A stretch of DNA of 63,796 nt, the filler included, from Kipferlia bialata (lineage: Eukaryota): NCBI GenBank assembly GCA_003568945.1. It is 4 parts of 4 records of this genome, joined end to end, with 100 filler letters (N's around TTAATTAATTAA, not from the genome) between each part and the next. Parts side by side here need not be neighbours in the genome. Positions count along the whole stretch, not along the records: positions 34,337 to 60,870 come from BDIP01000184.1; 3 more parts are not named here. One strand, given 5' to 3'. The notes under the pieces were generated by a model that was not told the DNA's origin, ran no database searches, and was given only the letters and a program-made list of their open reading frames with translations. Shown piece after piece: positions 19,667 through 60,970 of the stretch. The first letter of the stretch is position 1; every line of letters begins with the position of its first letter. The position numbers and the translations under genes were made by a program.

Positions 19667-19766
19667 NNNNNNNNNNNNNNNNNNNNNNNNNNNNNNNNNN
19701 NNNNNNNNNNTTAATTAATTAANNNNNNNNNNNNNNNNNNNNNNNNNNNNNNNNNNNNNNNNNNNN
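19667..19766. other. Artificial contig linker N44-TTAATTAATTAA-N44
   Basis: All-frame stop / PacI-containing 12-mer at 19711-19722, centred in exactly 100 nt. Confidence 0.95.
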
Positions 19767-19773
19767 CCCTCAG

Positions 19774-19819
19774 GTCATACTTCGAGGAGGTGTGGATGGA
19801 CATGTGTGACAGGGAGTAG
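19774..19819 (+). CDS. Terminal exon fragment (SYFEEVWMDMCDRE*)
   Basis: cctcag acceptor at the contig start, then a short GC-rich frame ending in TAG. Confidence 0.45.
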
Positions 19820-20097
19820 AGGGGATGCATTTCTCAGAGGACATACAATTGTCATTGGCACTGACCGAGTCCTTACATAGACCAGACCCCTAGCTCATTA
19901 CTCTTCCTTCGTTTAGTCAGCTTCCTCTTATCCCTTCCGCTACCACTATGGTAGGCGTCAAATATATATTTGAGATGAGTGAGTCATGGTTTCTATTAGA
20001 CACTGTCTATGGCATGAACACATCGTCCATACATTCAGTCATCCAACAAACTTCCCATCACTCTATTCCATTCACTCTCAAAACATAGACAGTCTGT

Positions 20098-26000: not shown

Positions 26001-26089
26001 TACTTGGTACAGGGGTTCTCGCCACACCCTGACCCACAGAGTGCATACCCCAGCACAGCCAATAGCAGCATCATCATGTTGTACTGCAT
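20098..26089 (-). CDS. Secreted Cys-rich protein with carboxypeptidase-regulatory-like (Cna-B/transthyretin-fold) domains, many small exons
   Basis: First exon MQYNMMMLLLAVLGYALCGSGCGENPC... has a signal peptide (missed by the ORF track). Domains LVGTVTDEGGVGVPGVVVVVGLDEVAVTDEFGNYVAHDLPPG and TTTSNAFGYYSFPSLDTGIYTILAEHP. Last exon DDAAVEARL...DDVFKP*. Confidence 0.7.
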
Positions 26090-26753
26090 CTCTCAGTCTG
26101 GACGGTATAGCCTCGACCGACACTGAAGTCAAGGAGAGGGCCAGTGCGTGGGGAGGGAGGGGTGGAGCTCAACAGTGTGTTACAGTGTGTCAAACACTGT
26201 TCAAACGTGTGAGGCCCTCAGTGAGGGAACTGTTTAAACGGGCTGCGACTGTCCCTACTCTGTAGAGTCTACAGTATAACACAGTGACTACCATACAGCG
26301 CGTGTCAGTACAGTGTCCACGCCGTGAGTGGTCAGCCCCTTGTGAGAGACGATATATATTTATGTATATATATATATATGTTTGAGAGACCAAGTCTTTT
26401 GCTGTTAGTCCTTTTCGTGTATATATACCCTTCTTGCCTAGAACCCTTGTCAATATCACGTTTCTATGATGACCACATGCCTGCGGGTCTTTGATAACAT
26501 GATCACCGCACGAATTGGTAATATCGTATTACTATCTCTCAATCAATCATCCCTCATGTAGTTGGTTTGCACTTATGCAGCAGAGGTTTCTCTCTCTCAC
26601 ACGCACAAATACACTAAAGTCTAAAAATATTCGCAGGTACATAGTATGTACTACATACATTGGCACTGGCATTAATCGACTACTGAGGCCTAGTAGTGGA
26701 ATACTGGATATTACATAGGCCCTTTCTCTCTTGACATTGTGGGGAGACATTTA

Positions 26754-32700: not shown

Positions 32701-34107
32701 AACAATAGAGAGAGAGTGTATCAGAGAGACATATTTAGAAAGAGATACCTACCTGCCCAGCCGCAGTGCCTGGGGTGATACACCGTGTGTATATACATAT
32801 GTACATACATTTATGCATACCCATCTTATACGTGTATCGTGATGTACCTGCCCAGCCGCAGTGCCTCGTGTGATACATCAATGGGTGTGACAGTGGTGGC
32901 ATTGGGGGGGAGGGACCGGAGGGCATCGGGGACACTGGGGGTGAGGTATATTTATGAATGGTACGTGTATATCATATTGGACATCGGATTTGAAATGTAG
33001 AGTGCCATATATACACACTCCCACACCTCATGTGTATGGAATATAGAGTCAGGAGTATGAGTGAATATCCATATACACCATACACACAGAGAATCCAATA
33101 CATCCACATACCTATGGTGCATGGCACAGTCCGTGACACGTGTGGCATCTCTCTGTCTCTCTCTCTCTCTTTCTGCCTCACTGCTTCTCTCTCTATATGT
33201 ATACTCTCTCTCTATGTATTCTCATGTAATCAATACAATATAATATCAGTCAATACATCCATCCAAGTGGGTGTGTGTAGAGGTACCTCTTGTGTATAAC
33301 ACAGTCCTTGGTATGGGTGGCGTGGGTGTGGGAGACGCCCTTGGACGTAGACTGTTATTGTGAGGGTGAAGAGAGAGAGAAAGGGAGATGTGGATCAGGT
33401 GTATAGTTGCAAATCAATCGACAATACCGACTGTGCAACTAATGAATAGATAGATTCCTGATGCACACCTTCTTGAATGACAGCAGCTTGTATGGCTTGT
33501 GTTCATAGCACATCTCCCACCTCTTGCCCTTGGCCTTGTCAGAGTATCTGATGATGAGGTGGGGGTGTACAGGAATACATATTTGTATATAATTATACCT
33601 ATACTATATATGTATATATATGCATTTATATAATATATTATTATAGAATTTAATATATATATGACAGTAATATACTATATATATATAGAGAGAGATATGG
33701 GGATGGAGATTTGTCACCCTGGCCTGGTCAGAGTATCTTAGGCGAGGCTATATGAATACATATGCTTATCTATATGTACATCTAGAGAGAGAGAGGTCTG
33801 TCACCCTTGTTAGAGTACAGGGGTAGAGAGATAGATGTAGACGGTAAGTAGAGAGCTGAGGATTGGACTATCATCTAATGTATGCAAGTATATATATATA
33901 GGTGTATGTGTGTGAGTGGTGTGGCAACTGTGCAAATAGGAGGCCAGTCAATATCTATGTATATATATATATTTTGTAGATCCATAGTCAGTCATCGCGT
34001 GAATGATGTATGAATATATATCAGAGAGTGAGTGAGTCATATACACTTAGTAGATACTTACTTCACTATGCACTCCCCACACTCACAGGCAATCAGGTTG
34101 GCCCTCC
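26754..34107 (-). CDS. Kelch-like beta-propeller protein, many micro-exons, 5'-partial
   Basis: Exon peptides MPVAVVGNTLHVLG, PLFAAYDTVTDTWQIL and TSVYDRLDQTWRRGP are Kelch-type. Last exon ASIKKRP...GDRK*. The full exon chain was not resolved, and the span could hold more than one gene. Confidence 0.55.
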
Positions 34108-34236
34108 CTGGGTCAGATGTATAGGAATACATTTATACATATATATATACTTATATATAAGAGACACTATGTATATATTTGATGTGTATCAGACTGGGAG
34201 GGGGGGGGGGGGGGGGGGGGCTCAACCTGGGCAGTG

Positions 34237-34336
34237 NNNNNNNNNNNNNNNNNNNNNNNNNNNNNNNNNNNNNNNNNNNNTTAATTAATTAANNNNNNNN
34301 NNNNNNNNNNNNNNNNNNNNNNNNNNNNNNNNNNNN
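34237..34336. other. Artificial contig linker N44-TTAATTAATTAA-N44
   Basis: 12-mer at 34281-34292. Confidence 0.95.
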
Positions 34337-34671
34337 CAAAAGGGGGTGTTCAGGGGTGTTTCCCCCCCCCCCCCCCCTATTTCCCTCTACATATGCCCAA
34401 GCAGATACCTACCCCGTAGTGTATAGTCTATAACGCTTCCTCCATATAAGGATGGGTCTATTCTTATGATGATGGAACGGGGATCATACATTACCCGTCT
34501 CTCTCTCTCCCCTCCCCTCCCCAAACTCCTTCTCTCTCCCTCTCCTTTCTCTCTCCTTTCTCTCCTTCTCTCCTTCTCTCTCTCTCTCTCCCCCTCTCTC
34601 TGTCTTACTCTAGGATCTTGTGCACTATTTAAATATTCATAATCTCACTGCTGCCTCTGTTGCCACATGTA

Positions 34672-34703
<32 letters not shown>

Positions 34704-34820
34704 TACTCTGGGATCTTGTGCACTCTTATAATAGGCATTATCTCACTGCTGCCTCTGGTGCCACCTGTACTCTATCTCTCTCTCTCCCTCCCCCTCTCCC
34801 TCTCTCGTTCTTATCCTTAG

Positions 34821-37800
34821 GACCTTGTTCACTACTACAACCGACACAATCTGACTGCTGCCTCTGGTGCCACATGTACTCTGGAGTGGGATGGTATCAT
34901 CAATGTATTGGAGGGGCTAAACAGGTACTGGTTAATATATTTATATATATAAATCCATACAATTGTAAATACAATTATTACTATTCATATATATATTTTC
35001 TATGTATGGTGCATGTACTTTCGAGTGAGACGGCATCAAATACGTGCTAGATGGGCTGAATAGGTGTGAACGCTGGTTGCTAATCCGAATGCCAAGCCCA
35101 AATACCATCACCTCATTTGTTATATCCCATATCCCACTGATACGTTGATACTATATATATTCAGTTAGAATGTGGTATATTTTTTACTCCAGCGCCAAGC
35201 CCAAGGTGGCTGCCACGCTTGATGGCCACCAGTCAATATTCATTACTCAGCAGTAAGATTCTTTACACTGCTGTTATTCTTGCTAATTCTAGTGCCAAGC
35301 CCAAGGTTGCTGCCACCCTGGATGGCCACCTGCCCCAGATACTACAGCCAGTGGTGTCATGTCCCACCAGACTCAGCCAGAAGAAGAGGTATGCATATAT
35401 ATATGTATATATATATAGTAGTACATATATATGTGTATATACTACAGCCCGTGGTGGCATGTCCCACCAGACTCAGCCAGAAGAAGAGGTATGCATATAC
35501 ATATGTATATATAGTAGTATATATTAGTACATATGTATATACTACAGCCTGTGGTGTCATGTCCCACCAGACTCAGCCAGAAGAAGAGGAATACGTATGT
35601 TTATATATATATAGTATCACTCTTGGTTGGAGGACATGTATATGTGGTGATAACATGCAATATATTGCAGTGTAAAAAGGGGATCCATTCAGTGGTGTCA
35701 TATGTCCAACAAGACTCAGCCAGAAGAAGAGGTAAATTTACAGAGAGAGAGATTGCGGAATATCTGGATAGTATATACTCCTGAGGAAAGACATATATAT
35801 TGACATATATTGCATATGATTGGATCTCACTTGATGTACTGACTTCAGACTGGAACTGGTAGAATGCCTGCTCCAGGAGCTGCCTGTCGACAGAGGCACT
35901 CAAGGTATCTGTATTGTATACATATATATATATATAGAGAGTCAGTATCTCAGTATCTTGATACATACTGACCCAGGTGTGAGTGGTGTGTACACTGTAC
36001 TAATCCGCTATATATTCACACTGTATCAGTATACTCTATATATAGAATATTCCAGTGCCTTTGTTTCATCTTGATACTGACCCAGGTGTGAGTGGTGTGT
36101 ACACTGTGTTGAGCCGGTATCTGCCCCACCCTGCCGTGGCATGTCACCCCCAGCTAGAGGCAGGGGAGATAGTACATGCTATACAGAGGTATATAGAGAG
36201 GAATACAATGTATTATTATAGAATAATTTCAATACTCACCCCCAGCCACATTGGGAGGGTTGACAGACCGAGTATGTATGATGCAGCATGTCACACCCTG
36301 GCCCGAATGGTGCTGCACATGGACCCAGGCGTGTTTGAGGTACAATCTCTTAGTTAATGTATTACGCGATAGGTTTCTTACACGATATGACCGCAGGAGC
36401 ACTGCATGCCTATTTTTGACTTCTGTGACAACCCAGAGGCGCCCCCATTCCATCTGATGAACGCACTATACGTGAGGTATTTGCATTTGGATTGGATTGG
36501 ATATTATTAGATTATATACAGGTATTGTATATGGTGTCATTTCACCTCATGAATGCCGCATTCGTAAGCCGAGTGAGTATACAGTAGATGGTATTTGATT
36601 ATGTATATGTGTGGTTGGTGTTTTACTCACGCACAGGGCCCGTGCGACTGGCAACCTCCCCCTCCTCACCTTACTGTCCACTACCAACATGCTCACAGAG
36701 GCAGTGGGGGTGGTGTCCAACGCAGTCGATGACGAGGCAGTGTCACAGGTACATATATCGTGTAGTTTTGTGTCAGGTACTCTGGAAAATCTGGATAATC
36801 GTGTAGTTTACCGTCGATGATGAGGCAGTGTCACAGGTACATATATATAGTGCAGTTTAGTAGTATTCAACGTGGTGGGTTTCTGAATTTGAGTAGATTC
36901 AACTTCTTGTCGTACAATCGTGTAGTTTGACTCCAGGCCACTACCTTCCTCTCCCTCGTTGCCCTTGGTGAGGTTGGCTCTGAGGAGGAGGGGGCAGAGA
37001 TCTCAGTGCACCCCCCGCCCATAGAGATGTGTCACCTGTTGGCCAGGTATTTGAGATTAATCCCTCTCAATATATATATGATATATATATGATATGGCAT
37101 TGCTCATATCTCCTTGTATCATGTATGTAATATACTGTGCACCCTCCGCCCATAGAGATGTGCCACCTGTTAGCCAGGTGAGGACAACTCACGCTGCAAG
37201 GATTAGTTCAATTTATGTATAGTATCGTAGTATACTGATATACTCACTCTTACCCCAGGAAGAGTGCCAGAGGCAGGGAGAGGGTTGGGGTTGTACATGG
37301 GACGACATGCGCTGTGTCACTGGCAAGGTGGGACATATATCATTGCCTCTCCATTTTATATTCTCTCAATGGTATTCCATTACTGAGAATTCCCTCCCTG
37401 TATAATTAGTATATAATCGTGATGTCTGGTTCTCTGAAGCCGGGACATGTTTCTATTTTCCTGTTTTAACTCCAGGTTGATCTCCAAGGTTGACCACACT
37501 GCCAGTGTCACTTCTACACTATGTGAGGTGTTCCCAGACATAAGGGGTGGGCAGACATCTTCTCTAGGTTAGTATCGTGTAGATTATATCCTGATAATTG
37601 AGCTTCTGTTATTCTTACGCCCAGCGCTGGAGTGCCTGATTCAACTGCTCTACACGCTGACACCCACACCGCGTAGTATTGCTACCGGCACATCAGAGGC
37701 TGTTACACTGGCCCTTGAGACCGTACCTCTAGTGCTTGAGAGACACACTGTACAGGTACACACTCGTATACTACGCGATATATCCTATCTTGATACGTCT

Positions 37801-40800
37801 GTACCTAATTTCAGGCATGCAGGCTCCTCTCTGCTTCTGCTAGGGCTATGGTATCCATGGTATCTACCAAGACAGAGAGGGACGATGCTGGAGAGAGAGA
37901 TACTCTACTCTCTCCGTTGCACAAGGCACTATCTGCTGTACTAGGAGTCATTGTAGTAGCTGCTAGTGAGGAGAGAGGGAAGGGCCACAACGGCATGGAC
38001 ACGGTACCAAGTGCCGCCCTATATGCATGTGGTGGCAGTGTGGCCTATGTCCTTGGGTCTCTCTCCCTCCTGGGGTGCAGGGATAGTGATGTGTGGGAGG
38101 TGCTGAGGGGTGTGGGTGGTATGGTATTCCCTCTCCCAGACTGCAGTGCCAAGAAGGAGGACGGTGAGGAGGAGAGAGATAGGGATAGGGAGAGAGGCAG
38201 TGCCACAGATGAGTGTGCTGTCTCAACACCTGTGGCCAAGGTACACCATCTCATATATGTAATGTATATCCTATATATTTATCCTCTATGTGCTCATTAT
38301 CAGGTCTTGGCCATAGTTGCCGTGTCCCACCACCTGGCCCTGTCCCTGATAGCACCCAGGGCTGCAGCTGACATACCATCTTACAAGGTATGAGTATATA
38401 CTGATATATCATCAGGTATATACTTGGTTAGTATATGTACACTCTAGCCCTGTCTCTGATAGCACCCAGGGCAGCAGCTGACTTACCATGTTACAAGGCA
38501 AGTGTATGGGTATACATATATGGTATATGAACAACCCACATCGATCCACTGTTTATGTATCAAAATACAAGTCCATGTACATACATATATGTATTCTATT
38601 GATTTTTGTATGCAAGTATAGTATATACATATACATACACAATATATATCTACTATACCCTCTGACGTCCAGGGTCTGGATGCTGCTACAGTCAAGTTCG
38701 CTTCTGAGGCACCTGAACTGCCAGGTATGTATGAAATATATATATGTTTGTATGAAGAGAGGGGTGATGATCTATCAATAGTCTGTCAGTTATACATTCC
38801 CTATCCACTCATATCCACTCTCTCTTCTGTCTAATCTCTCTTACTCAACTGTCGATATGAACCTTCTTTGATACCAAAAGGCCATAGATATGCCCTGCTC
38901 TACTCTGCTGTTGATCAATATCCATCTCTTCTACCTCATATATACCATGTAATCTCTGTAATAATCCGCTTTCTTCTGACTTTAGGCGGGCTTAGATATG
39001 CCCTTCTGTGCTCTGCCTCTGGCATGAGATTGAGAGACACTCACACCTTCAAGGAGGCACTCTCTCCTGTACTGTCTGTACTTGGGGTACTATCAGGCCT
39101 GGTACACACGACACTATCAAGCCAGGTATTGTATCTGGCAGACAGTTTTACCACATGGACTAGTCCGTATAGTTGATACATGTATATACCTGTATAAGCA
39201 TCTTTTTTCCTGACTCCAGCCCATCGGCAACGTCAATGTGTGCAAGAGTGCCCAGACTGTCAGAAGGTATCACAATCATAATCGATTATTGTAGAATATA
39301 TCTTCAGGTTTCATTGTTAGTATCAGTATTGGTATCAGTATTGGTATCAGTAGAGTCTGATACTTAGGTCCTTCGGAGCCGGTCACACCACATGTGACGC
39401 CCTCAACACTGTCCTCTTGGGAGGCGGTGCAGACATGTCGCCATGGACAGGTAGTGTAGTGTATACATATACATAATATAGAGAGAAAGATGGTGAGCTT
39501 TGTATTGTCTACCTTTACATATTTGGAAGAGAAGTATATACATGTCTCCATGGACTAGTAAATGAGTATGTATATATTTATGTTTAGACATGGATATATA
39601 TTGAACGTCTTACGAGTAGGTTACTTCCCTGTGGCTGCCCTGTCCGTCCTCTCCACCCACTCCACTGTGACAGACAGGGTGGAGGACAGACAGAGTGCAT
39701 GGGGGGAGACAGCTGTGATGGAGGTGAGTACATATACATATCTATTTACCCTATATACACTATTATATTGCATATAATGTTGTGTTATATAGGGTGGAGG
39801 ACAGACAGAGTGCATGGGGGGAGACCGCTGTTATGGAAGTGAGTACATATAAGTACATCTATATATACATCTCTCTACTCTATAGATATATACAATGTGT
39901 ATAGTGTGGTGACAGACAGGGTGGAGGACAGACAGAGTGTGTGGGGGAAGACGGCTGTTTTGGAGGTAATCCTATACATATATACTACTCTTCAGTTAGT
40001 CTCTCTAGTTACATTCAAGTATCTCTCTATATACCCATATATGTGAATAGGAGTGTGTATGTCTATGTGTGTCTCTATCCTCTCATCCCCAGTACCACCT
40101 GAGGAGCATCGCCCCCACTGTGACTGCACCCCTATCCCTTAATCTACACGATATGCATCGCGTAGAGTCACTCTGCGATGACCCTTTATGTCCTGTACCA
40201 TGTCCGGTGGAGTTCTACAATGCAGCACCCTCTAATGGCACCCTACCTGTTGGTGTCACTGCCCTCACTGCATCTCAGTCCATATCGCTATTGGATGTAC
40301 TCGACACTATCAAGGAGTCTTATAACAAGGTATATATAGTATGCAACAAGTATACTGTGTGTGTTTATTGTATGTTCGTCCATATCGCTGTTGGATGTGC
40401 TGGATACAGTCAAGGAGTCTTACAGTCAGGTAACGATATCACTTGTCCAATACATGTATCCATACTGAAGATATAGATAGACTTGTCATAATACCAACCA
40501 TCAGACGACTGACGCTGCCATTAGGATATCACTGGCCCTAGTCCTCTCCCATGCCTCTGCTGTCTATGCACCTCTGAAAGATAGTGCAGTGGCAGAGATG
40601 ACATCCATCTTAGTAGCCCCATCTATGGTAGGGCATTTGTGTAAGCATATACATATAGACTGACTATGTAATCTATATATGCACCCTTGAAGGATAGTGC
40701 AGTGGCAGAGATGGTCTCTATCTTGGTGGCACCCTCAATATATTATTAGTATAGAGTAACATACAGTAGTTTACTGCCATTGATCCCTCCAGGACCAGAG

Positions 40801-43800
40801 AATGCAAGACGTCGAGTATATGCTACTATGATGTATATATGTTTATACATACATGGTATGTATGGTATACAAATAATACTAACCCCTTCAGGACCAGAGG
40901 ATGCAGGACGCCAAGTATGAGAGAGAGAGAGTATCATCAACCAGACGTAGCAGAAGGGGTCACGATGAGGACGAGAACATGTTCCTCACCGCTGCTGACA
41001 TGTCCTGTCCTGCCCTGGTTGGGCTGATGCCTGCACTCTGCCGCTTGTCACACAAGGTATGGCACTCTTTTCAGCATGCTGAACTGTTTTATAGGTAGGT
41101 ACTCTTTCTGTATTGTCTCAATTGGAGAGCTCATATTTCTGGTCACACATATGGTGATCTATATTATGAATACACTGCCACTAACCCCAGGCATCCCTCT
41201 CTGCCCCTCCCCCTGACGATGGCTACGAGGGTGATCAGCCTCTGACATGGAGCCACCTGGCACTGATGGCACTACTCGAAGCAAGGTATATGCTATTCTA
41301 CGCGATGATGTGTATTCCATGTAGGCTAACCTTCAGGGATGACTGGCAAAAGGACCGACGTGACCTCAGACAGTCCCAGACACTTTCGGTCAACACTCTG
41401 CCATATGTGCCAGAGAGTCGCGTAGCCAGACTTGCAAAGTATGACTGAACACATATCATAAGTCTCTCATAATTATTACGCGATTACTGACATTAGGGTG
41501 TGCTCCAAGCAGCAGAGGATAGCCCTATTTCCCACTGACATGGCGCTACTTACCTGCCCTGTCTGGCTGAGGTATGTAGTTCATGAAGAGTTACTCATTA
41601 GAATTATTTTACTATGCATAATATCCTATGGAACACTATCTTTGGGTTGGGTCCTACCACCAGGTACTCCCTGCCTGACCCTGTTGAGAACTCTGACACT
41701 CCCTATGTGACTGTACCTGTTGTACTGGGACATATAGTGGAGCCAGTGCAGACCAAGGTACTCAAGGATGACCAAAGGCTGACAGGGCCTGTGCTGCAAG
41801 GTATGAAGGGAAAACATATATCCTGTCTTCGAGGGCGACAGGGCCCTGGTTGCCCTGATATACTCTACTGTATATAGTATGTACATACTCACACCAGGTT
41901 GTGTTACCCGTATCATGACCCATGCCCTCCAAGACACCCTGGCTGCATGTGTGGCACATGCGAAGCAGAAGGTACTATGTGGTATTTGTTGTTACTTTTG
42001 GAAGATACATGTCTATATATATAGGTAGTTGTGGTGTTCCATGTCCTGTAAGACACCCTTGCTGTATGTGTGGCACATGCTTAGCAGAAGGTATTGAATA
42101 TATGCAGATCATACATATTATTGATGAACATTCATACTTTCAAAGTATGTATGTAGGCCGTCTATCTCTAACACTAGGCAACCAATGGGGCTACTCCCAC
42201 TGAGGATCCTGACACCCCTGCTCGCAAGTCCCAGTCTCGGAGGGTGAGGAGCAGACACAACAGTCCAGGTGACGACATATTAGAAATGTATTTGCACATA
42301 GATCATCTGCCGTCAGACTCTCTCCCCCTCTCTATATAGATATTTATATATATATTGTTTAAACATATGTTTGAATACACCTAACCACAGGCACGAACCT
42401 CCTAGACGTCGAGGACGAGAGAGAGAGAGAGCAGCGCAGGAGGGATGCCATACCCACTGTGGAGCACTGGACACACCAGAAGTGCAGAGATTTAACGCAC
42501 AACATGCTATTCGTGGTGTTCCCTGAGGTATGTTCCATAGTATACTGTATATGTATGCCCATCAGAAATGCAGGACTATAACGCTATACCAGTTTGTTGT
42601 CTTCCCGGAGGTATATACTGAAAATGTTTTATCCATATTGGGTTCTTTACCTACAGACTGCACAGAAGTATTGTATGACTTTTCTTACGCGATTACTGAC
42701 CCCTTTAGGAGGAGGAGCAGACCATGAATGACATGCTGGACGGAGAGGAGTCTCGGTCGTCAGATGAGTCTCCACTGGTCAAGCGCAGGATCAAGAGAGG
42801 TCGTCAGGACAAGAACCACATCACGTGCTGCGGAACTATGCGATACCAGGTATATTGGGGTTAACTGGGAAGATTAGTGACATTCTGTCTATTTCCTGTC
42901 TTCCCTGATATATGTACTTGCCATTCTGCTTAATTATAGTTTCTATTCCTATTAATGATTTCAATATAGTTTCATTCCTATTAGTGATTCTTTACTCCCA
43001 GGTTGCCAGGTCCATTCTATTCCTCTTGGGTGACATTGAGAACGCATTCTTAAAGAGGTGAAATGCATTGTATTCTCAAATTTTATCTCTTTACTTTGTA
43101 CACTACTATATATTCAGTTGCAAACATTGCTGTTGCCTCACTCCAGGCCCAGGGATGGTCCTGGGACTTTGACTCTTCCAGTACATAAACAACTATCTTA
43201 ATATCGTTCTATAATAAATAGTAGACTACTGATAGTAGTGTATATGGTTTCTCACAACAGATCCAGGGATGGCCTGGGTCTTGGCCTGCTGACATCATCA
43301 TTGGACCCAGCTGTGAGGATGGGAGGTATATCTATAAGTATGAAATAATATATATTATTAGTATAGTGATGACAGTGAGTGTTGGACTCAGTCTTCACGG
43401 CGGTAGATATTTGTCTCAATATCGGTTTCTTTCCTATGTGTCTCATCACTTGTCATATTTGCTCTTCGAAAAAGGCTAAATCACGGTCGTCAACGTATAT
43501 CTCCCTAGATCTCACCCTTTAGGCGTCTGCGCTCTTCTGGAGTATGCCTCAAAGAGACCCACTGATGAGTTTGTACAGGAGTGCATCGGCAAGATGTGCT
43601 CTGTGGCCACGTCAGTACTCCTACCTAAGGTTTGTATATATTATATATTAATATATATGTCTGCATGCACAATCTGTCCTCCTTCCTAAGGTTTGTATAC
43701 TCCACGTTCTCTATAGATTTACAGTGAACATAATATTTTGTGAAAGTGACTAGTGTTCCCATACTTATCCCAGGTCTTCAAGGTGGATAGGAGGGATGGC

Positions 43801-46800
43801 ACAAAGACTGAGGTCCCCGAGGAGTTGGATGCCGTGACTGTGTCTGTGGTGTGGCTCTTGAGGATGAGTCTACCGGTGTTGACAGGTATTTTATCTATCT
43901 CAACCTTCCATGGTGACATTCTAGTCTTCGGCGGTATTCACTGAATAGTATTCACTGAATCTGACAGTGTTATACTAACCCCATCAGGTGGTGTGGCTTC
44001 CATTGTCCGGTCTGCTGTTCTCAAGGCCACCACATCCAGAGACAGGGACAGAGTGCTAAAGTAAGTACTATAATGGTATTCAGCATTTGCTGAGAATGTG
44101 CTGAACCCTGTCACTTGGTAACTCTGCTATTGGCCTTCAGTTAAAGATTGCAAATTGCATATCTGACCCCAAGATATGACTCTGTCAGAGCCATGTTAGC
44201 TGCTAGTGAGAATGACAATGAAGGAGAGAGAGATACAGGCCTAGCCAGACTGGTACTACCAGCAGCCACAGCCATGGTGGAGAGTGGGCATAGCCTATAT
44301 AGGTGTGTAGTATGGTATACATATTATATATATATGTATATATAGTGTATGGAGTGTTACAGCCATAGCCATGGTGGAGAGTGGGCATTCATTGTATCGG
44401 TGAGTAATATGATATGTTAAGAGAATTTGTATTTATATCTTTATGGAGCTTCTCCCCGCGTGTCACTGCCATGGTTGAGAGTATACACAGTCTGTATAGG
44501 TTAGCCATAGTACTATGTTCACACACTGTCTATATATATTAGAGGTGTTGTATGACTTTCTTAACCCCCAGGGTCCACTCCGACTCCCAAGGCCTCCCCC
44601 CTGACCAGGATGTGTGGGGCATGGTAGACACAGATACACACGTAGGACAGGTGAGGGATGAATTTACACTGTAGATTTATACTGAATGGTGAAGCAATAC
44701 CTTATCTCCCCCCTGACCAGGATGTGTGGGGTATGGTGGATGGCAACACACACGTGGGACAGGTGGGAGATGTAATATGACTATAGACTTATACTATAGT
44801 ATAGTGTAGTTGTATCGTATCTCCCCCCTGGCCAGGATGTTTTGGGCATGGTAGACACAGACACACACGTGGGACAGGTCATATGCCGTCTATATGTAGT
44901 ACTTTACAGCACGCACTCTTCATGTAATATCCAACGTGCAGGTCTTCCGCATCGCTGTGTCCTGTCTCTCCAGACAGCAGCAGCCCATGCCGGCCATACA
45001 GGCATACAGGTATGATACCAGTCTATATATTTTAGCTATATTCATCAATATATACACCTACAATGGTTATTGTTCTGCTTCCTGCTATTTAACCATCAGG
45101 AAGAGTGTGTTGCGCAAGGCCAGAGACGCTGCCAGAGCATCAAGGTATGGTCAATAAGCGATGCTTTATACAATCTGTGACGGTCAATTCATTTTCCTTC
45201 TGTTTCATTTCTTATCAAATAGGAAGGCCACCGCTGCCCCTGAGACTGGTGTCAAGAGACCCTCTAGGGGCAGACCTACGAGAAGGGCATCAACTAGAGG
45301 AAGTAGGGCCAAGAGGCGACCCACCCAGTCTGACCCATACATTGACACACTGAGCAAGGGACTGGGCCTGGCATTTGAGGTGTGTATGAGTATTCTGAGT
45401 ACATGTATTTGATGGTTGTGGTGATATTTAAGTTCTTAGTCACACCCAGGCTCAGTCCCAGGATGTTGATGAAGATGACAGTCACGAGGAGTCAGAGGCA
45501 GAGTCAGAGGGAGAGGGGGAGGGAGAGAGTGGTGTTGCAGGATGCACAGCTGGCAGTGTGTGCGTGGGTGTCCTGCTTGCTGCATGTGCAGTCTCCATGC
45601 TAGGTGTGTCTGATATATCATCCATAAACCATGAATCATTCACTTTCTCTCTCTTTGGTAGAGATACTATTTGGTCGACTGACGTGAAATGGGTTATTGA
45701 AATGGGTATTTTAATGGTTGATTCTTCCTTCTGTCTCTTACCCTAGGCATCCCAGACTATGTGCTGCAGTACTTCCCAGCAGAGAAGGACGCCCCTGAGG
45801 TACGTGGACCTGTAACATCTAAGTACTCACAGTTTGATACACTCACACTATGCTTTCCTCTAAGCTTGACACTGTATCCTTGCCCGAGACTCTAGAGTTT
45901 TCATGTACTCAATTACGATACTACGCATTACGTACTCACTCTAGGTTGACACTGTCACCTTGCCCAAGACTATAGAGGGCATGGATAGCATCTGCCAACA
46001 GATGCAGCCATCGGAGTTATATGCATTCACCAACCAGCTTAAGGTTTGTGTGTCCACTGTAGTGCTACTTGGTACATTCTACCTTTTCATATATACTGGA
46101 TACAAATACTATGTCATTCTGACTCGAGATCCTGCTCCATGAGGCAGAGTCCTCCCCAGATTCACCTCTTGCACAGCTGTGTGCTATAGGTAGCGCCATC
46201 CACTCACTAGGACTGTCAAGGTAGGCATGGTGGTATCTCTGTCCATATGAGAGTATTACCCACAAGTACAGGTGTTTGCCCATATACATGAATATCTTCC
46301 CTCCATCCCAATGATTGGTGGATGTTTCTCACTTCCAGGTGGCTGTATCCCAATGGCACATGGTCCGTTGTGGAGGCAGTGTCCACCCTGGTACAGTCAC
46401 AGTATATGGAGGGCGCCACCATATCCACACATACCAACACCCCACTAGACACAATGTCGGAAAGTGTTCTAACCATTGATGGTGTCTATCAGTACGACCT
46501 GGATGAGCAAGAGGGAGAAGAGAGAGAGAACGCCAGTGCCAAGCCTCCGTCGAGGTCACTTACGGCAGTCATTTGTAGTCTATTGACTGACGTTCATACA
46601 GCTATAGTGGATCACGAGTCACAGGCAGAGAGAGAGAGACTGGCCAAGGCCGCAGAGGAGGCAGACGTGGTAGAGATCATTCCATCTAGTGGTGCCTCGC
46701 CTGAGGATGATAACACTCCTGGCATCCCATCCTTCACAGCTGCCAACAGTGTTGCATGCCTACTAGATGCATTGAGCGTGTACAGGGATAGGGTGGGTAC

Positions 46801-49800
46801 ACCTTGTCAGCTTCTGATGCAGGGTGCTGCTAGGATACTCCAGACACCCACTGGTATGAGAGTGGGTGCATGTGTAGGAGAGGTATCAGCTGCATTCACT
46901 GGCGTCACCTTGGATGAGAGCACTGTAGACCCTGAGACAGCTATGGCCAAGTATGAGGCCTGTCTATCTACTCACAGAGACTCGTGTGTGATATTCCACC
47001 ACCTATCAGCACAGTACGGCATAGCTAGGGGAGAGGGGGTGCTACGCTGCCTATCAGCGAGGATCACTAGAGGGGACTTTTTCAAGGACTTAGACGCTGA
47101 GACGTGTGTGCCCTTACTCGCTGGCCTATCACACGTTCTCAATGGTGTATCCAGGGGAAGTGTGATAGAGAGAGAGTTGGTAGGGAGTATGACTGATGCT
47201 CTCTCCCTCATTGACGCACATGGTGGCCACCATACAGATGCGCTGTCTCTCTCTCTTCCTCACCCCTTGAGCGGTGTGCAGAGAGTGACCTTCAACACAT
47301 CAGAGTACCCGGAGAGTAGTGACACTCTGAAGAGGTACGAGATTTGTAGTATACTATTATTGTCAATATACATATTGCTCATGTTGGTATAGTCTTCTAG
47401 TACTAACCACCAGATACATGCGGTACTCGGATGCCGCTGATGACGCCGCAGTGGTCTGCAACGAGCTCATAGAGGTACCACAATACAAAATTTTAATGTT
47501 TAAGTGTTTCTTTCGCTACATGATTCACTAATTCCAGGCTAACAGGCTCTGCGGTGATGATGGGGAGGCAGATGCCCACCTTGCATTGACCGATACTCTC
47601 CTGGCAGAGGTGTGTATACTTAGACAAATACCATGTAATTCCTGTGAAATGGTTTATGATTCAGTACACCTCTCACTGTTGTCACATTGAACACCTTACT
47701 CTTCTAACTCAGAACTCCGTCCTTAGCCGTCTCACACCCGCCACTAGCAGCATATGCTCTCTCTCCACCTTGGTAGAGAGTATGTGCCGCCAATCTGGCT
47801 CTGAGGGTGTAGAGGCTGCTAAGGCCGTGATCCGTGTCATCGTTCCTGCCTCTGAGCTCACCGGATACATCGGTGTACCTACCACACCGGCTACCACCCC
47901 TCCTGCTTCTATTGAGAGTGATGGTGTTAGTGATGCTGTCTCGGTTTATAACACCTGGCTAAGTGGTGTGTGTGCTATTCTTAGAGAGAGAGCCGGTCTT
48001 GGTTGGCTGGCCTCCCTGGCCCCTTTCTCCCCCTATGCTGCTGAGTGGCTAGTCAAGTATGGCATATTCAGACTGACGTACCCCCTGTCATGCTGTGTGT
48101 TGAAGGTATAGTCATAGTGCTATTATTGATACTATTGATAAGAGTAACTGCATAGGATTGAATTCTCATCGTGACAACATCGGCAACAATATAATAATGA
48201 ACATTATATTGACATCTATATGATATATTGACTTACCCCTAGGGCACAGACAGGACCGAGGTCCTTGGCCAGATATTCAGTGTTGTGACTGGTGACTCAG
48301 CTGGTGACAACTCCCTTGTGGTACCTGTCCTGGCTGATGCCTTGGTGTATGTGGGACATATGATGTTAACGGCTAAGGTATGAATATAGAGTGCTATACT
48401 ATATATATACACTCTCTACACAATTGGTATTGTACATCTCCTGGCCGATGCCCTAGTCTATGTGGGACATATGATGCTCACGGCCAAGGCTTGTGTATAT
48501 GTTGTGTATATGCAGTATAGAGTAATAGTGTTTATATACATAGCATATAGTACTTATCTTGGTATACATGCTGCTCACTGCCTATATCAAAGTTGTATTT
48601 CTGTTATTGATGTCTATTAGAGCGATCATTGCTCACCGCAGACCTTTATCCACCGAGGCCTCAACGCATACATGAACGGGCAGCCAAACGATCCATCCAA
48701 GGTATGACACTTACTCTAATAGCGATAGTACCTGCATTATGACTCTAATGGATATTAGAGTTGCAATTGTCAGTACTTGTCTCTTACCCTCAGGACATTG
48801 GCCGCATCATCACCAACTACTCTCTCAACCTGTACCTCCCCTTCGGTGTCCCCTTGTCCATCTCCACCGCTGTGGCATCAGCCGCAATAGAGTCTGGATA
48901 CAACCACGTAGCAGGATGGATCACAGAGAGCCTCGGGTACCACATTGAGAGGGTTAGTACTATCGCGTTGTATTCGGTATCTAAATAGTTTATCGTGTAG
49001 AATAAGGCCCTTCCTGATACCAGATTGAGTGGCAGAGACAGGCTGTCTCTGGGTCGCCTACCATTAAGGGCGCACTTGTAGATGATGTGTTGGTCGACGC
49101 CCTTCAGGTGAGTATGTGTATGGTCTTACACTATGCTAGAGTACCAGGTCTTACTCGATGGGACTTCTGGATCTCTTCTAATGCACCAGGCTATCAACCG
49201 TCAGCACCAACTGGGAGCACGGGTGGTTAGGCAGCTAGTCAAGGTATCTGGTGTAGTGTATGCATGCGGGTATTTCCGTAGTATTCTCTCTCTGATCTAT
49301 ATGTATTAGTATGTGTCTGTGTTAATGTATGTAAACAAACCACCAGGTCATGCACCAGATGCCCGCTGCCTCCGACCCCTCGTTAGTCAGTGCAGACAAC
49401 CCCACTGCAGCTGATATTGCTGCTCTTACCTCCAGGGCACTGCTGCACACATCGCCAGAGGTATTCTATATCTATATATATATCACCCTTCTCGCCTCCT
49501 GTATGTGTTTGGTCAAGAACTGCAATGTCCTATGTATATAATCGTGTGTCTCACATTCAGGATTGTGTTTCAGATTCACCGTCACGGACACAATCCGCCA
49601 CTGGTGGATATCTCGCTAGATTCGACACTGATGACGGAGTCGAGCCAGTGCAGGAGCGGCTGAGAGCGCTTACCTACCAGGTGTATCATACACATCTCTT
49701 TGTTTTGAGGAATAGTGAACATCTATTGTTCCGACATGTAGAGAGACTCGCAATTGTATTACCAACCTTCTATATGAAAGTCCAGTCACATATTCTCTCG

Positions 49801-52800
49801 CTGACTCCCAGTCCGAGCTCTCCATGGCGCTTGGCAAGCACGCTGATGCCCTAGAGACATGGGATCAGGCTCTCACTCTCTCTCTCTCCCACGGTGGAGA
49901 GACAAGCTCCCAGCCACTCTCTCTTCCCTCTCTCACACCCACCATATCCATGAGTACTGACAGAGGAGAGAGTGTGAGGGAGAGAGATACCTCAGCAGAG
50001 GCCGGTCTCAGGCAGTGTCTGCTCTACAGTGGAAACAGCTACCTCCACCAGAGGCTAGGCCGTGACATGCAAGCGAGTAGAGACGCCGTGTACGTCCCAG
50101 ACTGGCGTTTCACCCATGACCCTCAGACAACGCCTCCATTCCCCACAACTGCCAATACAGCCTTCACAGCTATAGTGGGTGCTACAGTGTCTAGAGATGC
50201 CAATCGGGCACTAGCCGCGCTGCATAGCGGTAGGTCGGCTGTACTAGAGGCCATTACTCACACTAAGGGAGGTAGTGATGTGGGTATGGCTGGTGTCTCC
50301 TCTACCTCCTGGGCGGGTGTGTTTAGGGAATGTACAGCAGAAGCTGGGTCTAAGAGTGCCGATCTGCAGGGTATGGGGCTAAGGTCAGCACCCACACAGG
50401 AGCTGAGGCTCAGTACTGGGTGTGTGCTTTCAGTATTAGAGGGAGAGGGAGAGAGTGATACCGATACTGGTGCTGTCAGTGCCCTGAGGTCTATTGGTCA
50501 GAGGGCCAAGGAGACATACGGGAAGCTAGGTATGGGATTCATACAACGACAAATACTATCTTTGTAGTGTACATAAATGTGTGTGAGAGAGTAACTATTG
50601 CTATAATGCTCTCACCCCAGGCATGTCACAGCTGGGCACTAGGGTACTCAGCCAGTGTGGGTTACTGTACCACTTACTCAACGGTGGGTCCGTGGGAACT
50701 GGTGATAAGGGGAGGAGTGGTGAGAGGGAGGCTCTGAGTGCCTCTCTGTCACTTACAGAGACCCCTAGGCAGGCACTGTCCTTAGAGGCAGCTAAAGGTG
50801 GATATAAGTATGGCTCTATTTCACAACAATTTATTTTGTATTCATGTGTTGATTCTTCCTGCAGAGTTACTATTCTGGCAAGAATATATGTTAATCACTA
50901 ACTCTAGCTTCGTACTCTGGCTACCTAGAGATATCCGACAAGCTGCGGAACCAGGACTATATCAAGCAGGCTGAGGATCTAGGTAAGGAGTCTACGTGAG
51001 TAGGTTGGTTCCACACAGCGTTAGAGTGTTGATTCGTATTCCTAGGTATTATAGTGTATTTGACCCTCAGGCAACCTCGACAACAGACCCTCTGCTGCGA
51101 GAGAGAGAGACTTTGGAAAGAAGAGACAGGTCTCGGAAGTGGAGGTAAGAAGCATTACTCTCTCTCTGATTTCTTACTCCTCTGGTCCTGTATATATCGT
51201 ACAAAGATATGTATTACATTCTTGAAGGTGACAGTTATCTATACAAACGAGACAGAAGCCTTCTTCGTCTTCTTGCTATCCAGTGTACTTCTTCTATATG
51301 TCCTCTAAATACTACTAACCCTAGCGCTTCCTGAACCAGACCGAGGCCCTGATCGAGAAGCGCAACTCTTTCCTCATAGATTCCCTCACTGCCTATCTGC
51401 AGCACTTTGCAAAGGGAGATATTTCAGGTATGATCTATTCACTTGGATCTTTCAACGATAGTACCTGGTATTTACGTTCTCCTTGTCTAGAAAACACCTT
51501 GGTATACTGTCATTGAAATAGTATATCTCTCTAACAGTGAGGCTCCGACTCTCTGTCTGTGTTCCGTATCATCAGACCCCTACTTGATGTCTGTGGGTCT
51601 GGCAAGACAGACAAGAGTGCTAGCACTGCAACATCACCTGGCAAGGTACAGACATATCAATACAATTTCTCTAGTTCTCTCATGAACCCTGTGTTTATGA
51701 TATTTCTACACGATGGCACTCACGTGTTGATTTGCTATTTCTACACGATATGGACTCACGCGTAGTATGGCAGTGTCCAGAAGGACAAGGAGGTACTCAT
51801 CCTGCACAAGATGAGAAGGGTCACTAGGGACATGCTGATACACGGCATAGACCCACCAACAGCCAGGTTTGTCATATTGTCTGAGAACATCTCAATTACT
51901 CAAAGTGTCTTCTATATGAATATCATGCATATGTATTATTAGTATGAGTACGTTGCACTCTAACACCCAGCCAGGTAATCAAGCTACTGTCCGAGCACCT
52001 ACTCTCCAGAGATGGATCCCCACCACTGGTATCTAGTCACCACCTGCTACCCGCTGCAGTCATCCTGGTCACTAGGTATATATCGTGTAGTAAAGTAAAT
52101 TGTAGTGGCTTTTGTCATCCTAGCCACTGGGTATATCGTGTAGTATATCTGCATTATATGATAATGTTCACATCGTGTAGTTGGATGACTTTGTTTCTTA
52201 TGCTAGGCTGGCCTCGCAGATCCCAGCAAGTGCTCCACCTACACCGGCACCACCGGCTAGGTATGGAACAGAATGATTTGTTGTATCACTATGTACTGAA
52301 TACAGTTGGACATACATACTATATCACATACTCTCCCTATATATTTGCTGCTACTATACTTAGATTCCACTATATATATATTTATATATATATGTGCATA
52401 TTGTTACTACCAGGATGAGCTAGATGACATAGGCTGGGAGTCAATCACTACGATGGCACCATATCTCCATAATGATTGAGTGCTGCTACACATATATACT
52501 ATAATACATATATATTTATATATGTATTGATAGCAGGGATGAACTAGACGACATGGGCTGGGAGTCTATCACCACCATGGCACCAGTCTCATACAGAGGC
52601 AGGGAGAGGGAGAGAGAGAGGGAGAGAGAGAGGAAGAGGTCAAGGGAGAGAGTGCCATCCAGAAGTCCTAGGGAGTCATCTCTAGCAGCTGCCAGAGAAC
52701 TACTCAGGTACATATCCTGTACATATACTATATATACCTGTATAGAAATACTAAGGTACATGGGTACAAATTTTGTAGATACATGGAAATGAACTTTATA

Positions 52801-55800
52801 TATGCAGCTAATGTCCAGGAACGTTGTGCTTAGGATGGCCGTCGACCACCCCTTCCACGTAGTCCCACACCTGATAGCAATCGGAGGCTGTGAGGTACAT
52901 TCTGTGTGCAACCAATACCTATTAATAATCAACGTGTTCAAGATGTTAGCAAAATGTATATCATCATATCTATATATACGACATGACTCCTCTATCGCGT
53001 AACATGCAGGATGTACTGACTGATCTGTTGGGACCAGTTGGCCAAGAGATGACAGTGGATCACTCAGTGCTGGTGGCAGCCGTTCAGGGTTCGTCTCAAT
53101 TGGGTCCATTATCTAGGACTAATTATCTACTTTCTGTATCAATATCTAACTATCAGGTTGCCAGGCAGCCGTAGAGTTCTATCCTGAGGTCTTTAGACTA
53201 GGTAAGAGGAAGATATTTTTACCATAGCCGCTTCTACCAAGAATAGCGGGATCTTTTCCGTTATTGCAGAATATATATATTCATTTACAATTGTTAGTGA
53301 ATAGCGACACATAGCGAATGTATTGTTACTTACCCCAGCCACCCCCTCCAATTGTGTAATTCTATACTCTATTATACTCTCCTCAAATATGTCGCATAAC
53401 ACAAAATTAGTATTGTTACTTACCCCAGCCACCCCCTCCAAGAATGACAGTCACGTGTTCATTACATACATGTATATACACATGGTAGACTACAAGTATA
53501 TGTCGCGTCATTCTATGTATAGATAGATTACTAACCACAGCCACGCCCTCCAAGAATGACAGGCACCTATCTACACTCTTATCATACAACCCTACATAGT
53601 ATGACAACATCTCTAAGACCCAATTGTTTAGTATAGTGTGTTACTCCGTTCTAACCCAGCCACCCCCTCCAAGAATGACAGGCACCTGTCTACACGGGCC
53701 AAGAACAAGCTCAAGACACACGTCAAGACATTCAACATGGCTGTGAGGTATATATGTCTCTCTCTCTCACACACACACTCTCTAGGGGTTTCGTTACTGG
53801 ATCTCACTCCTTAGGGGCACCCGGTCTAGGACCACTGGCAGACGCAGTGGCCATCTGATAGCAGTCCCATCCTACACGGTGAGTATATGTCTAAACATAT
53901 ATTGTATACCCAAATGCTATGTGAATACTCTTACCCTCAGGTCCCTGCGAGACATGCAATCTACAAGGGCGGGAAGGTTCAGACACTTATGCAGTACAGG
54001 GTACGTACACCGCGTGAGTTATTGATATTATGTAGTAGATACTGGCATCGCGTTGTATTTCGGTAACCCCAGGATACCCCCCTTATCCGCGGAATCTCAG
54101 AGAATATTGCTGCTCTGGGTGGTGTGAATGGTAGTAAGAAGGTACAAGGTTATTGTAAAGTATAATGAATATGTGTTTAAACAGCATAAATATAGTCAGA
54201 TATTATTACATGTATAAATGTATATGCATGTATTTACTGTGATACTTCCTTACCCCTAGGTCTCTGTGCATGACACCCACGGCATGGTGCACGAGGAGTG
54301 TCTCAAGATGGGTGGGTATTGATGTATATATATATATATGTATGCGTATGCGTGTGTGTGTGTGTACCACATTATTGTAGTACATGAGTTGTATGTGTGT
54401 ATCAATTTCTGCCCACGAGGAGTGCCTCAAGATTGGTGGGCATGGGAATATGGATAGTTATACACTTCATCAATATTGATAGAGAACTAAGGCGATGATT
54501 AGATTGAAATGAACGGATTGTACCATCAATATACACATGCATCATTCTGTCATGATATACTGACCATCAGGCAAAGACGACATGCTCCAGACCAACCTCG
54601 TCATGTCCTTCTTCGACTGTGCCAATGTCATTCTCCAGAACCAGAGGGGGTTCAGTGGCACACCAGTCAGAACATACAAGGTAATACTCGATTAGTGACA
54701 AGTTACTCGTTGCCATACTCTATTAGTGGATATAGAACCAGACGGGGTTAAGTGGAACACCAGTAAGGACATACAAGGTATTACTCGATTAATGACAAGC
54801 CACTCCATACTCTTCTTTTCTCGCTTCGTGACATGCAGGTTCACCCGTTCTCCCAGAGCTCTGCCTCTTCGTGTGGAGTGCTGCAGATGGTGCCTACGTG
54901 CATATCATACCACCAGTGGCTGGAGTCAGGTGTGTTGGAGTATATACCATGAAAATAGCAATATATGGGTATATAGAATGCATTTCACAGAGTATATGTA
55001 TATATATAGTACGAATATTTATAAGTGAATGTATTGAAATAGTATAGTGCCAACGTGCTTATCGTAAAACCAGTGGCTGGAGTCAGGTATCTGGTGTGAC
55101 GCACAAAGTCACAAGTGAATCATATAACCGTCACATATATGTATATTGTAGTAAGTACATATATGCAGTAATGGGTATATTGAATATATCAGAGAAGGGA
55201 ATTATTGCATTGAAGTGTTTGTCCGCTTACCCCCAGGTGACCCCTGGAATGACGGTGTCCCTGCCTGTTCCAGATACATGCTGCCAGGTATTTTTTGTAT
55301 ATAAATGTATATATATACATAGAAGGTGGATACGTACATTGGACAAGGGTTTTATCGATACATGGAGTTCTCTGTGCCTATAGGCCTTCCTTTTCTCCCT
55401 CCTTATCTCTCCTTCTTGCGCTTTGCTGTATAGAGTCATCTGCTGACTCTTTGCCCATGCCCTCTGGGGTCTTTCTCTCCCTCTGACACCCTCTCTCTCT
55501 CCATATGGTATATGTACTTACATACTTATACAAGGCTGTATAGAGTCCTCTGCCGACTTTGCCCATGCCCTGAAGGGTCTGCAGATGCAGGGACACCAGG
55601 ACAGGGTAAGTGTATTGCTATAGACNNNNNNNNNNNNNNNNNNNNNNNNNNNNNNNNNNNNNNNNNNNNNNNNNNNNNNNNNNNNNNNNNNNNNNNNNNN
55701 NNNNNNNNNNNNNNNNNNNNNNNNNAAATATATGTATATTCATAGAATAGTATATATACACATATATACATGTATGGCAACATCCTGATCGACCAGACAA

Positions 55801-57005
55801 GTGGGCAGGTATATTCATTCATATATACATTCATAGTATAATATATATCCATTTTGATATATTACTATGAATAGGATATATATGATAACTTTCTGATCGA
55901 CCAGACAAGTGGACAGGTAATATGAACACCTGATGTATACCCAAACTCCCTCAAAATTTCAAATATTACTCGTTCCATATATTTCTCCACGATACTCACC
56001 CTAGGTTGTGCACATTGACCTAGAGTATGTGTTCAATGACTCTAACTCCCTCACAATATCATATAATTACGCGGTCCTCCTATTTTTACACGATACTGAC
56101 CTCAGGTTGTCCACATTGACCTTGAGTATGTGTTCAATGACTCTGACTCCTTGACCATCCCTGAGAAGTGCCCGGTCAGACTGACCCAGAACGTGGTGGA
56201 TGGGTTAGGGCCGGCAGGTACGGGTATAGAGTGGCAGACTCTCTGGGTGGACTTTAATGTATTACTTTGAGCAACTGAATACGTATCATGATAGGTTTCT
56301 TTCGTGTTTGTTGTAATGTGCCTCTACTCATTACAGGACTCAATGGTCTGTTTAGATCGACTGCCAACAGTGCACTGGCAACACTAAGGTACGATAGTTA
56401 CTGTTTGGATTCTATGTACTAAGGGCCTGTGGGTCTCTATACATACACTTTTATGTATATGTGTGTATATACTATTATATACTATTATTCTAATGTATAT
56501 ATGGGATATGACTCATTGTGTTCTTACCCCCAGGGAGCAGCGTGACATGTTCCTTGTTCCTGTCTCTGTGGTGGCAGAGTCACCTTCATTCAGGTACAGG
56601 ATACTCTATATTAGTATATGATTACATATAGGTATCGGTATAATCCGATAGCTATTTGTAGATTGATGGAAAGAATAGTATGGGATATAGATGTAATATG
56701 TATATAATATATTCGTGTGCATACACTAACCCCAGATGGGGTGAGAAGGCTGACACCTCTACCCTCGGAGCTAGGGCAGTCCAGGGAGTAGCCCACAAGC
56801 TAGGTACCTTTAACGCGTAGATTGTCACTCTATCGATTAGAACCACAAGTATGTGTATGCCATCGTGTAGAATCCTAACCCTCCAGCTGGTATTGTGGAT
56901 GGTAGGCACCGCTCTGTGGATGAGCAGATGCAGCACGTGGTGCAGGAGAGTACTGACCTGGACAACCTGGGCAGCATGTACAGTGGCTGGAGGGCGTGGC
57001 TGTAG
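34821..57005 (+). CDS. ATM: ATM/Tel1-like PIKK serine/threonine kinase (helical N-terminus, FAT, PI3K-like kinase, FATC), dozens of exons, 5'-partial
   Basis: VLRMAVDHPFHVVPHLIAI; GGVNGSKK; CLKMGKDDMLQTNLVM; VRTYKVHPFSQSS..GVL; VVHIDLEYVF...IPEKCPVRLTQNVVDGLGPAGLNGLFR; FATC SVDEQMQHVVQESTDLDNLGSMYSGWRAWL* (TAG 57003-57005). These motifs are closer to ATM than ATR. That the exons at 34.8-50 kb belong to the same gene is inferred from strand, splice phase and expected size. Confidence 0.8.
35191..35731 (+). repeat. Cluster of partial exon duplications around the exon at 35293-35388
   Basis: The exon 5' part is copied at 35191. The 3' part (gtggtgtcatgtcccaccagactcagccagaagaagagg) recurs near 35440, 35540 and 35690. 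Confidence 0.9.
53320..53695 (+). repeat. Four tandem copies of an acceptor plus exon start (cagccaccccctcca...)
   Basis: Copies near 53325, 53416, 53530 and 53652. Only the last continues as an open exon. Confidence 0.9.
55626..55725. other. Assembly gap (100 N) inside the kinase domain
   Basis: Run of N. The expected catalytic-loop exon(s) are absent from the sequenced flanks. Confidence 0.97.
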
Positions 57006-57514
57006 AATAATTATATTCAATGACCTGTTAGGGGGGGTATTTCGCAAGTTGAATAGATAGATCCTAGGCAGCATGTACAGTGGCTGGAGGGCGTGGCTCT
57101 AGATTATAGTTATAGTATCGTGCCAACACTTGCATTTAGGGAGTGATTGCTATGTTGAATAGATGGCTATACTAAACAGTTTACAAGGTAAAGTGATAGA
57201 CCATAGTGTGGATGAAACAATAGCACTCTATTGGAGTACCCTTACAATGAAAGTTTCATTGAAACATCTGTCTAGGCTCAAGAGTCTTGATTCAGTATTG
57301 GTTTAGTATCGATTTAGTATAGATTACTACCTCTGATCATCAGCGTTGACCTGAGAGGGTTCGGTATGTCATAAGTACTCTACATTGAGTCAAAAGCAGC
57401 TAATTCGAACCCTACGAGCACAAGTGATGCCGCCACAATATGTAAGGCAGAACATATCCCAGTCAACATCATCTATTTGACAGTGTAATAGGTAAGTACT
57501 ATGATATATCCCCT

Positions 57515-60870: not shown

Positions 60871-60970
60871 NNNNNNNNNNNNNNNNNNNNNNNNNNNNNN
60901 NNNNNNNNNNNNNNTTAATTAATTAANNNNNNNNNNNNNNNNNNNNNNNNNNNNNNNNNNNNNNNNNNNN
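60871..60970. other. Artificial contig linker N44-TTAATTAATTAA-N44
   Basis: 12-mer at 60915-60926. Confidence 0.95.

Follow-up and report, generated by a model that had tools for sequence, protein, structure and literature searches.

Short head-to-tail repeats that span exon-intron borders have been described in amphioxus, where such "mirage" repeats occur in Adh3, troponin C, the globins BflGb6 and BflGb9 and PGBD5 (PMC3087553, PMC3902484). As these papers describe them, the repeats lie at either exon-intron border in units of 10–160 nt, many cryptic GT and AG dinucleotides are kept, and splicing is normal. They form minisatellite-like arrays of up to 6–7 units that evolve in concert at 81–100% identity, differ in copy number from one haplotype to another and are somatically unstable, and the PGBD5 copies are imperfect, with units of 60 and 108 bp. 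The available text of neither paper reports a codon-level analysis. Moreover, we found no report of silent-site bias in mirage-type copies in the main text of the open-access literature; alignments of mirages in the supplementary files of the two amphioxus papers may be relevant here.

Here we describe repeats of this kind in the window, that is, the whole 63,796-nt stretch of DNA that was analysed. A first-pass annotation had noted two consecutive exons of a kinase gene, each followed in the intron by a recoded copy of its own end, which we term an echo. Like amphioxus mirages, the echoes are head-to-tail duplications over a 5′ or 3′ exon-intron boundary (37 copies), and splicing is normal despite the cryptic sites (five echo sets). 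Unlike them, they form sets of 2–4 units spread over about one-sixth of the exon ends and over several genes of an intron-rich, non-animal-looking genome, and the copies are mostly 70–97% alike, are not homogenised and carry a strong silent-site bias. Intron gain by tandem duplication is likewise a short local duplication of exon sequence with splice signals. Here, in contrast, the intron was already present and has become longer (median 260 nt in the 24 introns with an echo vs 101 nt in the 55 without), and the observed joints run from the old intron's first GT to its last AG, so that no new intron position arises. As far as could be tested, the echoes are a real variant of mirage repeats that is not gene-specific, and the silent-site divergence is the new part.

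The host gene and its border-spanning copies

The gene was modelled by hand as 81 exons (Table 1), with a reading frame that is open for 3145 codons, meets a 100-N gap and continues for 137 codons. Exon 77 matches Pfam PI3_PI4_kinase (E 9.2e-6), and comparison of the exons with PDB gave matches to ATR, Tel1, ATM and SMG1. The layout, a PI3/PI4-kinase domain followed by a C-terminal FATC in a very long protein, is that by which PIKKs are recognised. By its sequence the gene is thus a PIKK, and ATM, ATR and SMG1 are indistinguishable from single exons. The label "ATM" of the first-pass annotation therefore stands as to family and is not established as to member: the FATC exon (exon 81) scores best with SMG1 (30 bits; ATM 15–18), and the activation-loop exon (exon 77) with ATR (24.6; Tel1 23.3, ATM 22.2, SMG1 22). 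The DHPxH and HIDL motifs have what we take to be an ATM-like appearance. Exons 65, 73, 74 and 76 gave no PIKK match, and Pfam found no domain in the untrimmed frames of exons 73 and 81.

Some features of the model deserve mention. Four exons (at 44174, 46129, 51542 and 55535) would require AAG or GAG acceptors for the model to stay open. The 100-N gap within 55626–55917 of the window likely conceals the catalytic-loop exon, and two copies of the end of that exon follow the gap (about 55780–55809 and 55892–55917, period 108). N-flanked six-frame stop linkers at 19667–19766, 34237–34336 and 60871–60970 join the window's separate contigs, and one of them truncates the 5′ end of the kinase gene.

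A scan of the gene by DNA alignment only, with shuffled controls, found 37 tandem copies of ~100 nt at 29 of 162 exon ends (~1 in 6), 22 borders having one extra copy and 7 having two or three. Weaker echoes at exons 6 and 32 failed a stricter cut and are left out of the 37; that of exon 17, though weak, is counted. Donor-type copies (23), consisting of exon end, GT and intron start, always lie downstream of the working exon, and acceptor-type copies (14) always upstream. No opposite-polarity copies were found in the 57 exons tested, and no repeats above 20/30 inside 11 long exons. The echoed unit comprises roughly 50 nt of exon end and roughly 60 nt of intron, and the tandem copies measure about 80–160 nt; periods range from 80 to 157 nt with a median of 109, and 11 of 37 fall at 97–101 nt. 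The duplicated intron part stands above background to about 20 nt from the junction. One near-identical array lies at 35339–35588, most copies being diverged; the rarity of such young copies was not used as evidence, since the assembly may collapse them.

The echoes are not the two-exon oddity that they had seemed. Beyond the 37 copies in this gene, self-comparison of the window shows dozens of repeats spaced 57–150 nt, and at least four further gene regions have the same pattern. The genes at 19790–26089 (−) and 26750–34200 (−) carry echoes, including three-copy sets at about 27730–27968 and 30810–31078, and several have identical exon parts with about 40% diverged intron parts. At 56966–57102 (+) and 20007–20121 (−), the stop-codon region of the last exon is echoed into the 3′ flank; therefore the process is tied to harmless positions and not to splice sites. 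The many-exon gene at 14536–18790 (+), which we take to resemble the splicing factor PRP6, has short near-identical donor echoes with periods of 57–71 and intronic (GATACT)n runs. In a large intron-containing gene at about 4000–13600 (−), none of 25 junction-like sites had an echo. One exon of this gene (4566–5201; gene ~4080–13500) has a 27–34% match over nearly its full length to bacterial "choice-of-anchor O" proteins of Desulfobulbaceae/Desulfosarcina, and the gene is a likely candidate for lateral transfer from anaerobic bacteria.

Splicing was followed in contigs of run X1, which we take as RNA given their GT..AG joints, and which is possibly from the same sample as the window and so not independent of it. 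A 3132-nt contig, whose joints (Table 1) cross five echoes in four sets, is identical to the working-position copy, with 0 differences across the four echo sets. A second contig passes three spare acceptors at exon 68 to use the last of four (among the joints listed, 15 of 76). Thus in five echo sets, in one run, splicing takes place at the exon-contiguous copy despite cryptic GT and AG. At 92% similarity no contig of X1 matched the echoes themselves, one of the 174,042 records having aligned in that comparison, and since contigs drop variants a second allele is not thereby absent. The same limit applies to the lack of variant letters over 19.9 kb among the matches listed (8 of 463 pieces).

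Table 1. Position of the kinase gene and of selected working exons and echoes in the window.
Feature	Position	Strand	Support or remark
PIKK-family kinase gene, 37 echoes	34821..57005	+	hand-built 81-exon model
Two acceptor-type echoes of first modelled exon	34614..34773	+	branch comparison
Exon 2 end echoes, donor-type, three copies at offsets 100, 200, 341; one GT lost, one frameshifted	35439..35731	+	
Exon 18 end echoes, donor-type, two copies at offsets 115, 242	39781..39965	+	both skipped by joint 39721>40091
Exon 19, working copy; last 51–61 nt echoed	40093..40329	+	spliced contig 40091–40327, 0 other letters; GT..AG joints 39721>40091, 40327>40503
Exon 19 end echo, donor-type, period 100, GT kept, no acceptor	40379..40429	+	contig joins across
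Exon 20, working copy	40505..40627	+	contig 40503–40626, 0 other letters
Exon 20 end echo, donor-type, period 113, donor lost (TA), no acceptor	40678..40740	+	skipped by joint 40626>40891
Exon 21 start echo, acceptor-type (AG and exon start), period 99, same intron as exon 20 echo	40793..40819	+	skipped by joint 40626>40891
Exon 21, working copy	40892..41056	+	contig 40891–41057, 0 other letters
Exon 26 end echo, two in-frame stops	42039..42090	+	
Three acceptor-type echoes of exon 68 start	53339..53576	+	contig joint 53199>53658 uses last acceptor

Silent-site divergence and decay of the copies

The two pairs first noted lie at the ends of exons 19 and 20. At exon 19, 40279–40329 SISLLDVLDTIKESYNK differs from its echo at 40379–40429 SISLLDVLDTVKESYSQ in 6 synonymous and 3 replacement codons of 17 (10/51 nt); at exon 20, 40565–40627 YAPLKDSAVAEMTSILVAPSM differs from 40678–40740 YAPLKDSAVAEMVSILVAPSI in 9 synonymous and 2 replacement codons of 21 (13/63 nt). 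These codon counts, as first given, were exact on recount; at the replaced codons the echoes read V/S/Q at exon 19 and V/I at exon 20. Each pair outscores 200 shuffles of its own intron (p=0.005). Codon alignment of the pooled pairs (NG86) gives pS 17/27.3 and pN 6/86.7, with 6 of 23 differences non-synonymous vs 61% expected for a copy dead from birth (P=6.5e-4). Exons 19 and 20 are 237 and 123 nt long, and only their 3′ 51–68 nt is copied. No AG precedes either echo (TTCG, TATA) and the spliced contig joins across both, so that they are indeed intronic and acceptor-less, as had been proposed; the exon 20 echo has lost its donor as well, being followed by TA and not GT.

Across all 37 copies, differences amount to 70/1042 (6.7%) at 0-fold, 60/303 at 2-fold and 87/274 (31.8%) at 4-fold sites, a 0-fold/4-fold ratio of 0.22; 4-fold differences are about five times denser. 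In fixed, splice-anchored windows of 24, 30 and 36 nt with one copy per border (n=27, 24 and 20 of 29), the JC-corrected ratio was 0.148, 0.145 and 0.104, respectively. The low 0-fold rate nearest the splice site (7/341) is partly due to end trimming and was not used. Dead-from-birth copies were simulated in 240 runs, some of which included transition and AT bias, and were passed through the aligner used for the scan; median ratios were 0.54–0.65 and the minimum was 0.35, vs an observed raw value of 0.218 over the 29 borders. Moreover, the duplicated intron part was recognisable in 13 of 36 copies vs 120 of 120 simulated at the divergence of 0.14–0.2 that a dead-from-birth copy implies. The divergence of the echoes is unlike that of a dead duplicate, and the purifying-type pattern first suspected in two exons extends, as a silent-site excess beyond these simulations, from both pairs to the 37 copies. 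A second-gene replicate (0-fold 10/120, 4-fold 8/32, ratio 0.33), with hand-set limits and 3 of 8 copies identical, points in the same direction and is non-discriminating alone.

Six multi-copy sets allow changes to be placed on branches. The working-copy branch has 0/189 changes at 0-fold vs 11/103 at 2- and 4-fold sites. Echo-specific branches have a two-fold excess only (0-fold 22/378 vs 4-fold 11/98, p=0.07), and because neutral decay together with shared history can give a two-fold excess, the silent excess is not assignable to the echo lineage. The clearest two-phase case is at 34614–34773, where the two echoes have in common 7 synonymous changes and no non-synonymous change relative to the working copy, and most of the differences between the echoes themselves are at 0-fold sites. 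Synonymous divergence among echoes (chi2 49.6, df 28) is, by rough reckoning, less variable than under a free coalescent.

The copies are now dead. A stop, a frameshift or a lost GT or AG breaks 12 of the 37, and two more have GC donors. The splice dinucleotide is lost in 8 of 36 (2 to GC), being kept as GT in 18 of 22 donor-type and as AG in 10 of 14 acceptor-type copies; there are 4 frameshifts and one in-frame 3-nt gap. Stops (5 in 517 codons) are at their neutral share, and the 65 replacements are not more conservative than random (20/65 vs 30.7%). From exon to echo, GC>AT and AT>GC changes stand at 37:12 at 0-fold and 31:29 at 4-fold sites (Fisher p=0.017), and, with an intron GC of 37%, the 0-fold drift from GC to AT matches expected intron decay. 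Silent-biased divergence combined with random replacements and broken copies therefore suggests that the sequences diverged first as working exons and then decayed as junk.

Candidate origins of the exon-like copies

One account takes the echoes for ordinary mirage repeats that arose as exact local duplicates and never functioned, beside working exons whose synonymous sites mutate about five times faster than the intron copy, with no other alleles involved; it seems to us unlikely. Their geometry is that of the amphioxus mirages (PMC3087553), some copies are identical in the exon part, and a working lineage that changes faster by a factor of about 5 would account for the branch counts. However, equal rates never give a ratio below 0.35, and divergence is highest, not lowest, in the intron parts (13/36 recognisable), which argues that introns are not mutation-cold. 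Furthermore, we know of no mutational process that reads codon degeneracy, which also argues against this account. Selection on the echoes in place, through rare alternative splicing or indirectly through swap-back into the working exon, is quite unlikely too. The frequent retention of GT and AG and the in-frame gap would fit it, but no echo has both splice sites, the rates of stops and of non-conservative changes are neutral, and splice sites are lost (8/36) no less often than neutrality predicts. Indirect selection would, moreover, need very large populations and so lead to allelic diversity again.

An assembly artefact, in which the assembler or a gap filler placed pieces of a second haplotype or strain in tandem, is decidedly improbable, although the periods cluster uncomfortably near a common read length of about 100 nt and a second haplotype would show just such allele-like divergence. 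The 12 broken copies, set against a working frame open for 3145 codons, and the existence of as many as four versions of a single exon end disfavour mis-incorporation of a live second haplotype, which the first-pass annotation had named as the refuting case. The exact match of spliced contigs to the working-position copy in five echo sets and the lack of copies inside long exons also speak against it, and similar imperfect repeats in amphioxus were confirmed by re-sequencing (PMC3902484). Mutually exclusive duplicated exons were considered and rejected, as these require an entire exon flanked by both an acceptor and a donor, and only part of an exon with one splice site is copied. Remnants of such exons, both once used and later trimmed, would explain purifying divergence without other alleles; we regard them as very improbable, the periods of 80–157 often being shorter than the exon (237, 171, 165, 140 nt) and the expected opposite-polarity remnants being absent in 57 exons.

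We favour, with somewhat better than even confidence, a reading of the echoes as border-spanning tandem copies whose exon-like part likely came from another, strongly diverged working allele via recombination. Such an allele is the economical source because half an exon with one splice site could not function in place, and alternative exons, once trimmed, would be expected as remnants of either polarity. Under this allelic reading, about 0.3–0.4 synonymous changes per site would have accumulated while both versions were working exons, followed by a short neutral decay of about 0.06 changes per site. The diverged versions would meet only by recombination between alleles, whether in a hypervariable population, in a hybrid or between long-diverged homologues. 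The duplication may have formed between homologues, by staggered breaks or by aborted homologous repair and end joining (route A). Alternatively, an exact local duplicate may have come first, with exon or echo later overwritten by another allele (route B), the overwriting being confined to exons because only these are still alike enough to pair. From one haplotype the two routes would be inseparable. An existing echo could also pair with the exon end of a further allele, by which echoes would be refreshed and arrays built, and copies within exons or spanning a whole intron would presumably be purged, leaving the border-spanning ones.

Parts of this scheme have parallels elsewhere. In mouse, staggered meiotic breaks cause both tandem duplications and joins between homologues (10.1101/2020.06.23.168138), and sequence of the other homologue could in this way enter a duplicated stretch; as described there, however, the events are at hotspots, mostly in Atm-null germ lines, kb-scale, of low divergence and not tied to exon borders. 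In the hypervariable fungus Schizophyllum commune, crossovers prefer exons (PMC4209137), which likewise makes exons the stretches alike enough for diverged alleles to recombine; in that cross, by contrast, parental divergence is 14% and crossovers are precise, and the available text mentions neither duplications nor insertions. The available text of PMC5874029 and PMC6679479 has no duplication wording, nor, in the former, the word "tandem". The implied allelic dS of about 0.3–0.4 exceeds the 14% of the fungal cross and counts against the allelic reading. So do the low spread of synonymous divergence among echoes, the merely two-fold excess on echo-specific branches, the weaker second-gene replicate and the periods near 100 nt. 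Metamonads are described as having no classical end joining (NHEJ) and as relying on homologous repair (PMC8516963), and by analogy these repair habits would fit recombination between alleles if the host is a metamonad. No relatives of the locus came from a homologue search with exon 44 (2000 aa limit), a metagenome locus scan or a 21-nt pattern scan.

Implications for introns and gene pools

Border-spanning repeats were known from amphioxus as an oddity whose origin was unclear. In the present genome they occur at high density, and their codon-level signature gives a pointer to where they came from. In practice, echoes can mislead gene prediction, and they resemble alternative exons or mis-assemblies. 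If the allelic reading holds, a single assembly would give evidence that a microbial eukaryote undergoes genetic exchange and is extremely diverse, the decay phase would provide a measurable neutral mutation spectrum, and the formation and persistence of mirages would have a testable explanation. More tentatively, and at somewhat less than even confidence, we propose that the introns are an archive of lost alleles, in which recombination of homologues that pair only in exons routinely goes astray by some hundred bases and leaves part of the partner's exon behind in the intron. Were this true, one genome would hold thousands of dated samples of its ancestral gene pool and would bear the direct marks of sex or hybridisation that joined lineages separated by about 30–40% at silent sites, and misfiring recombination would be a main driver of intron length.
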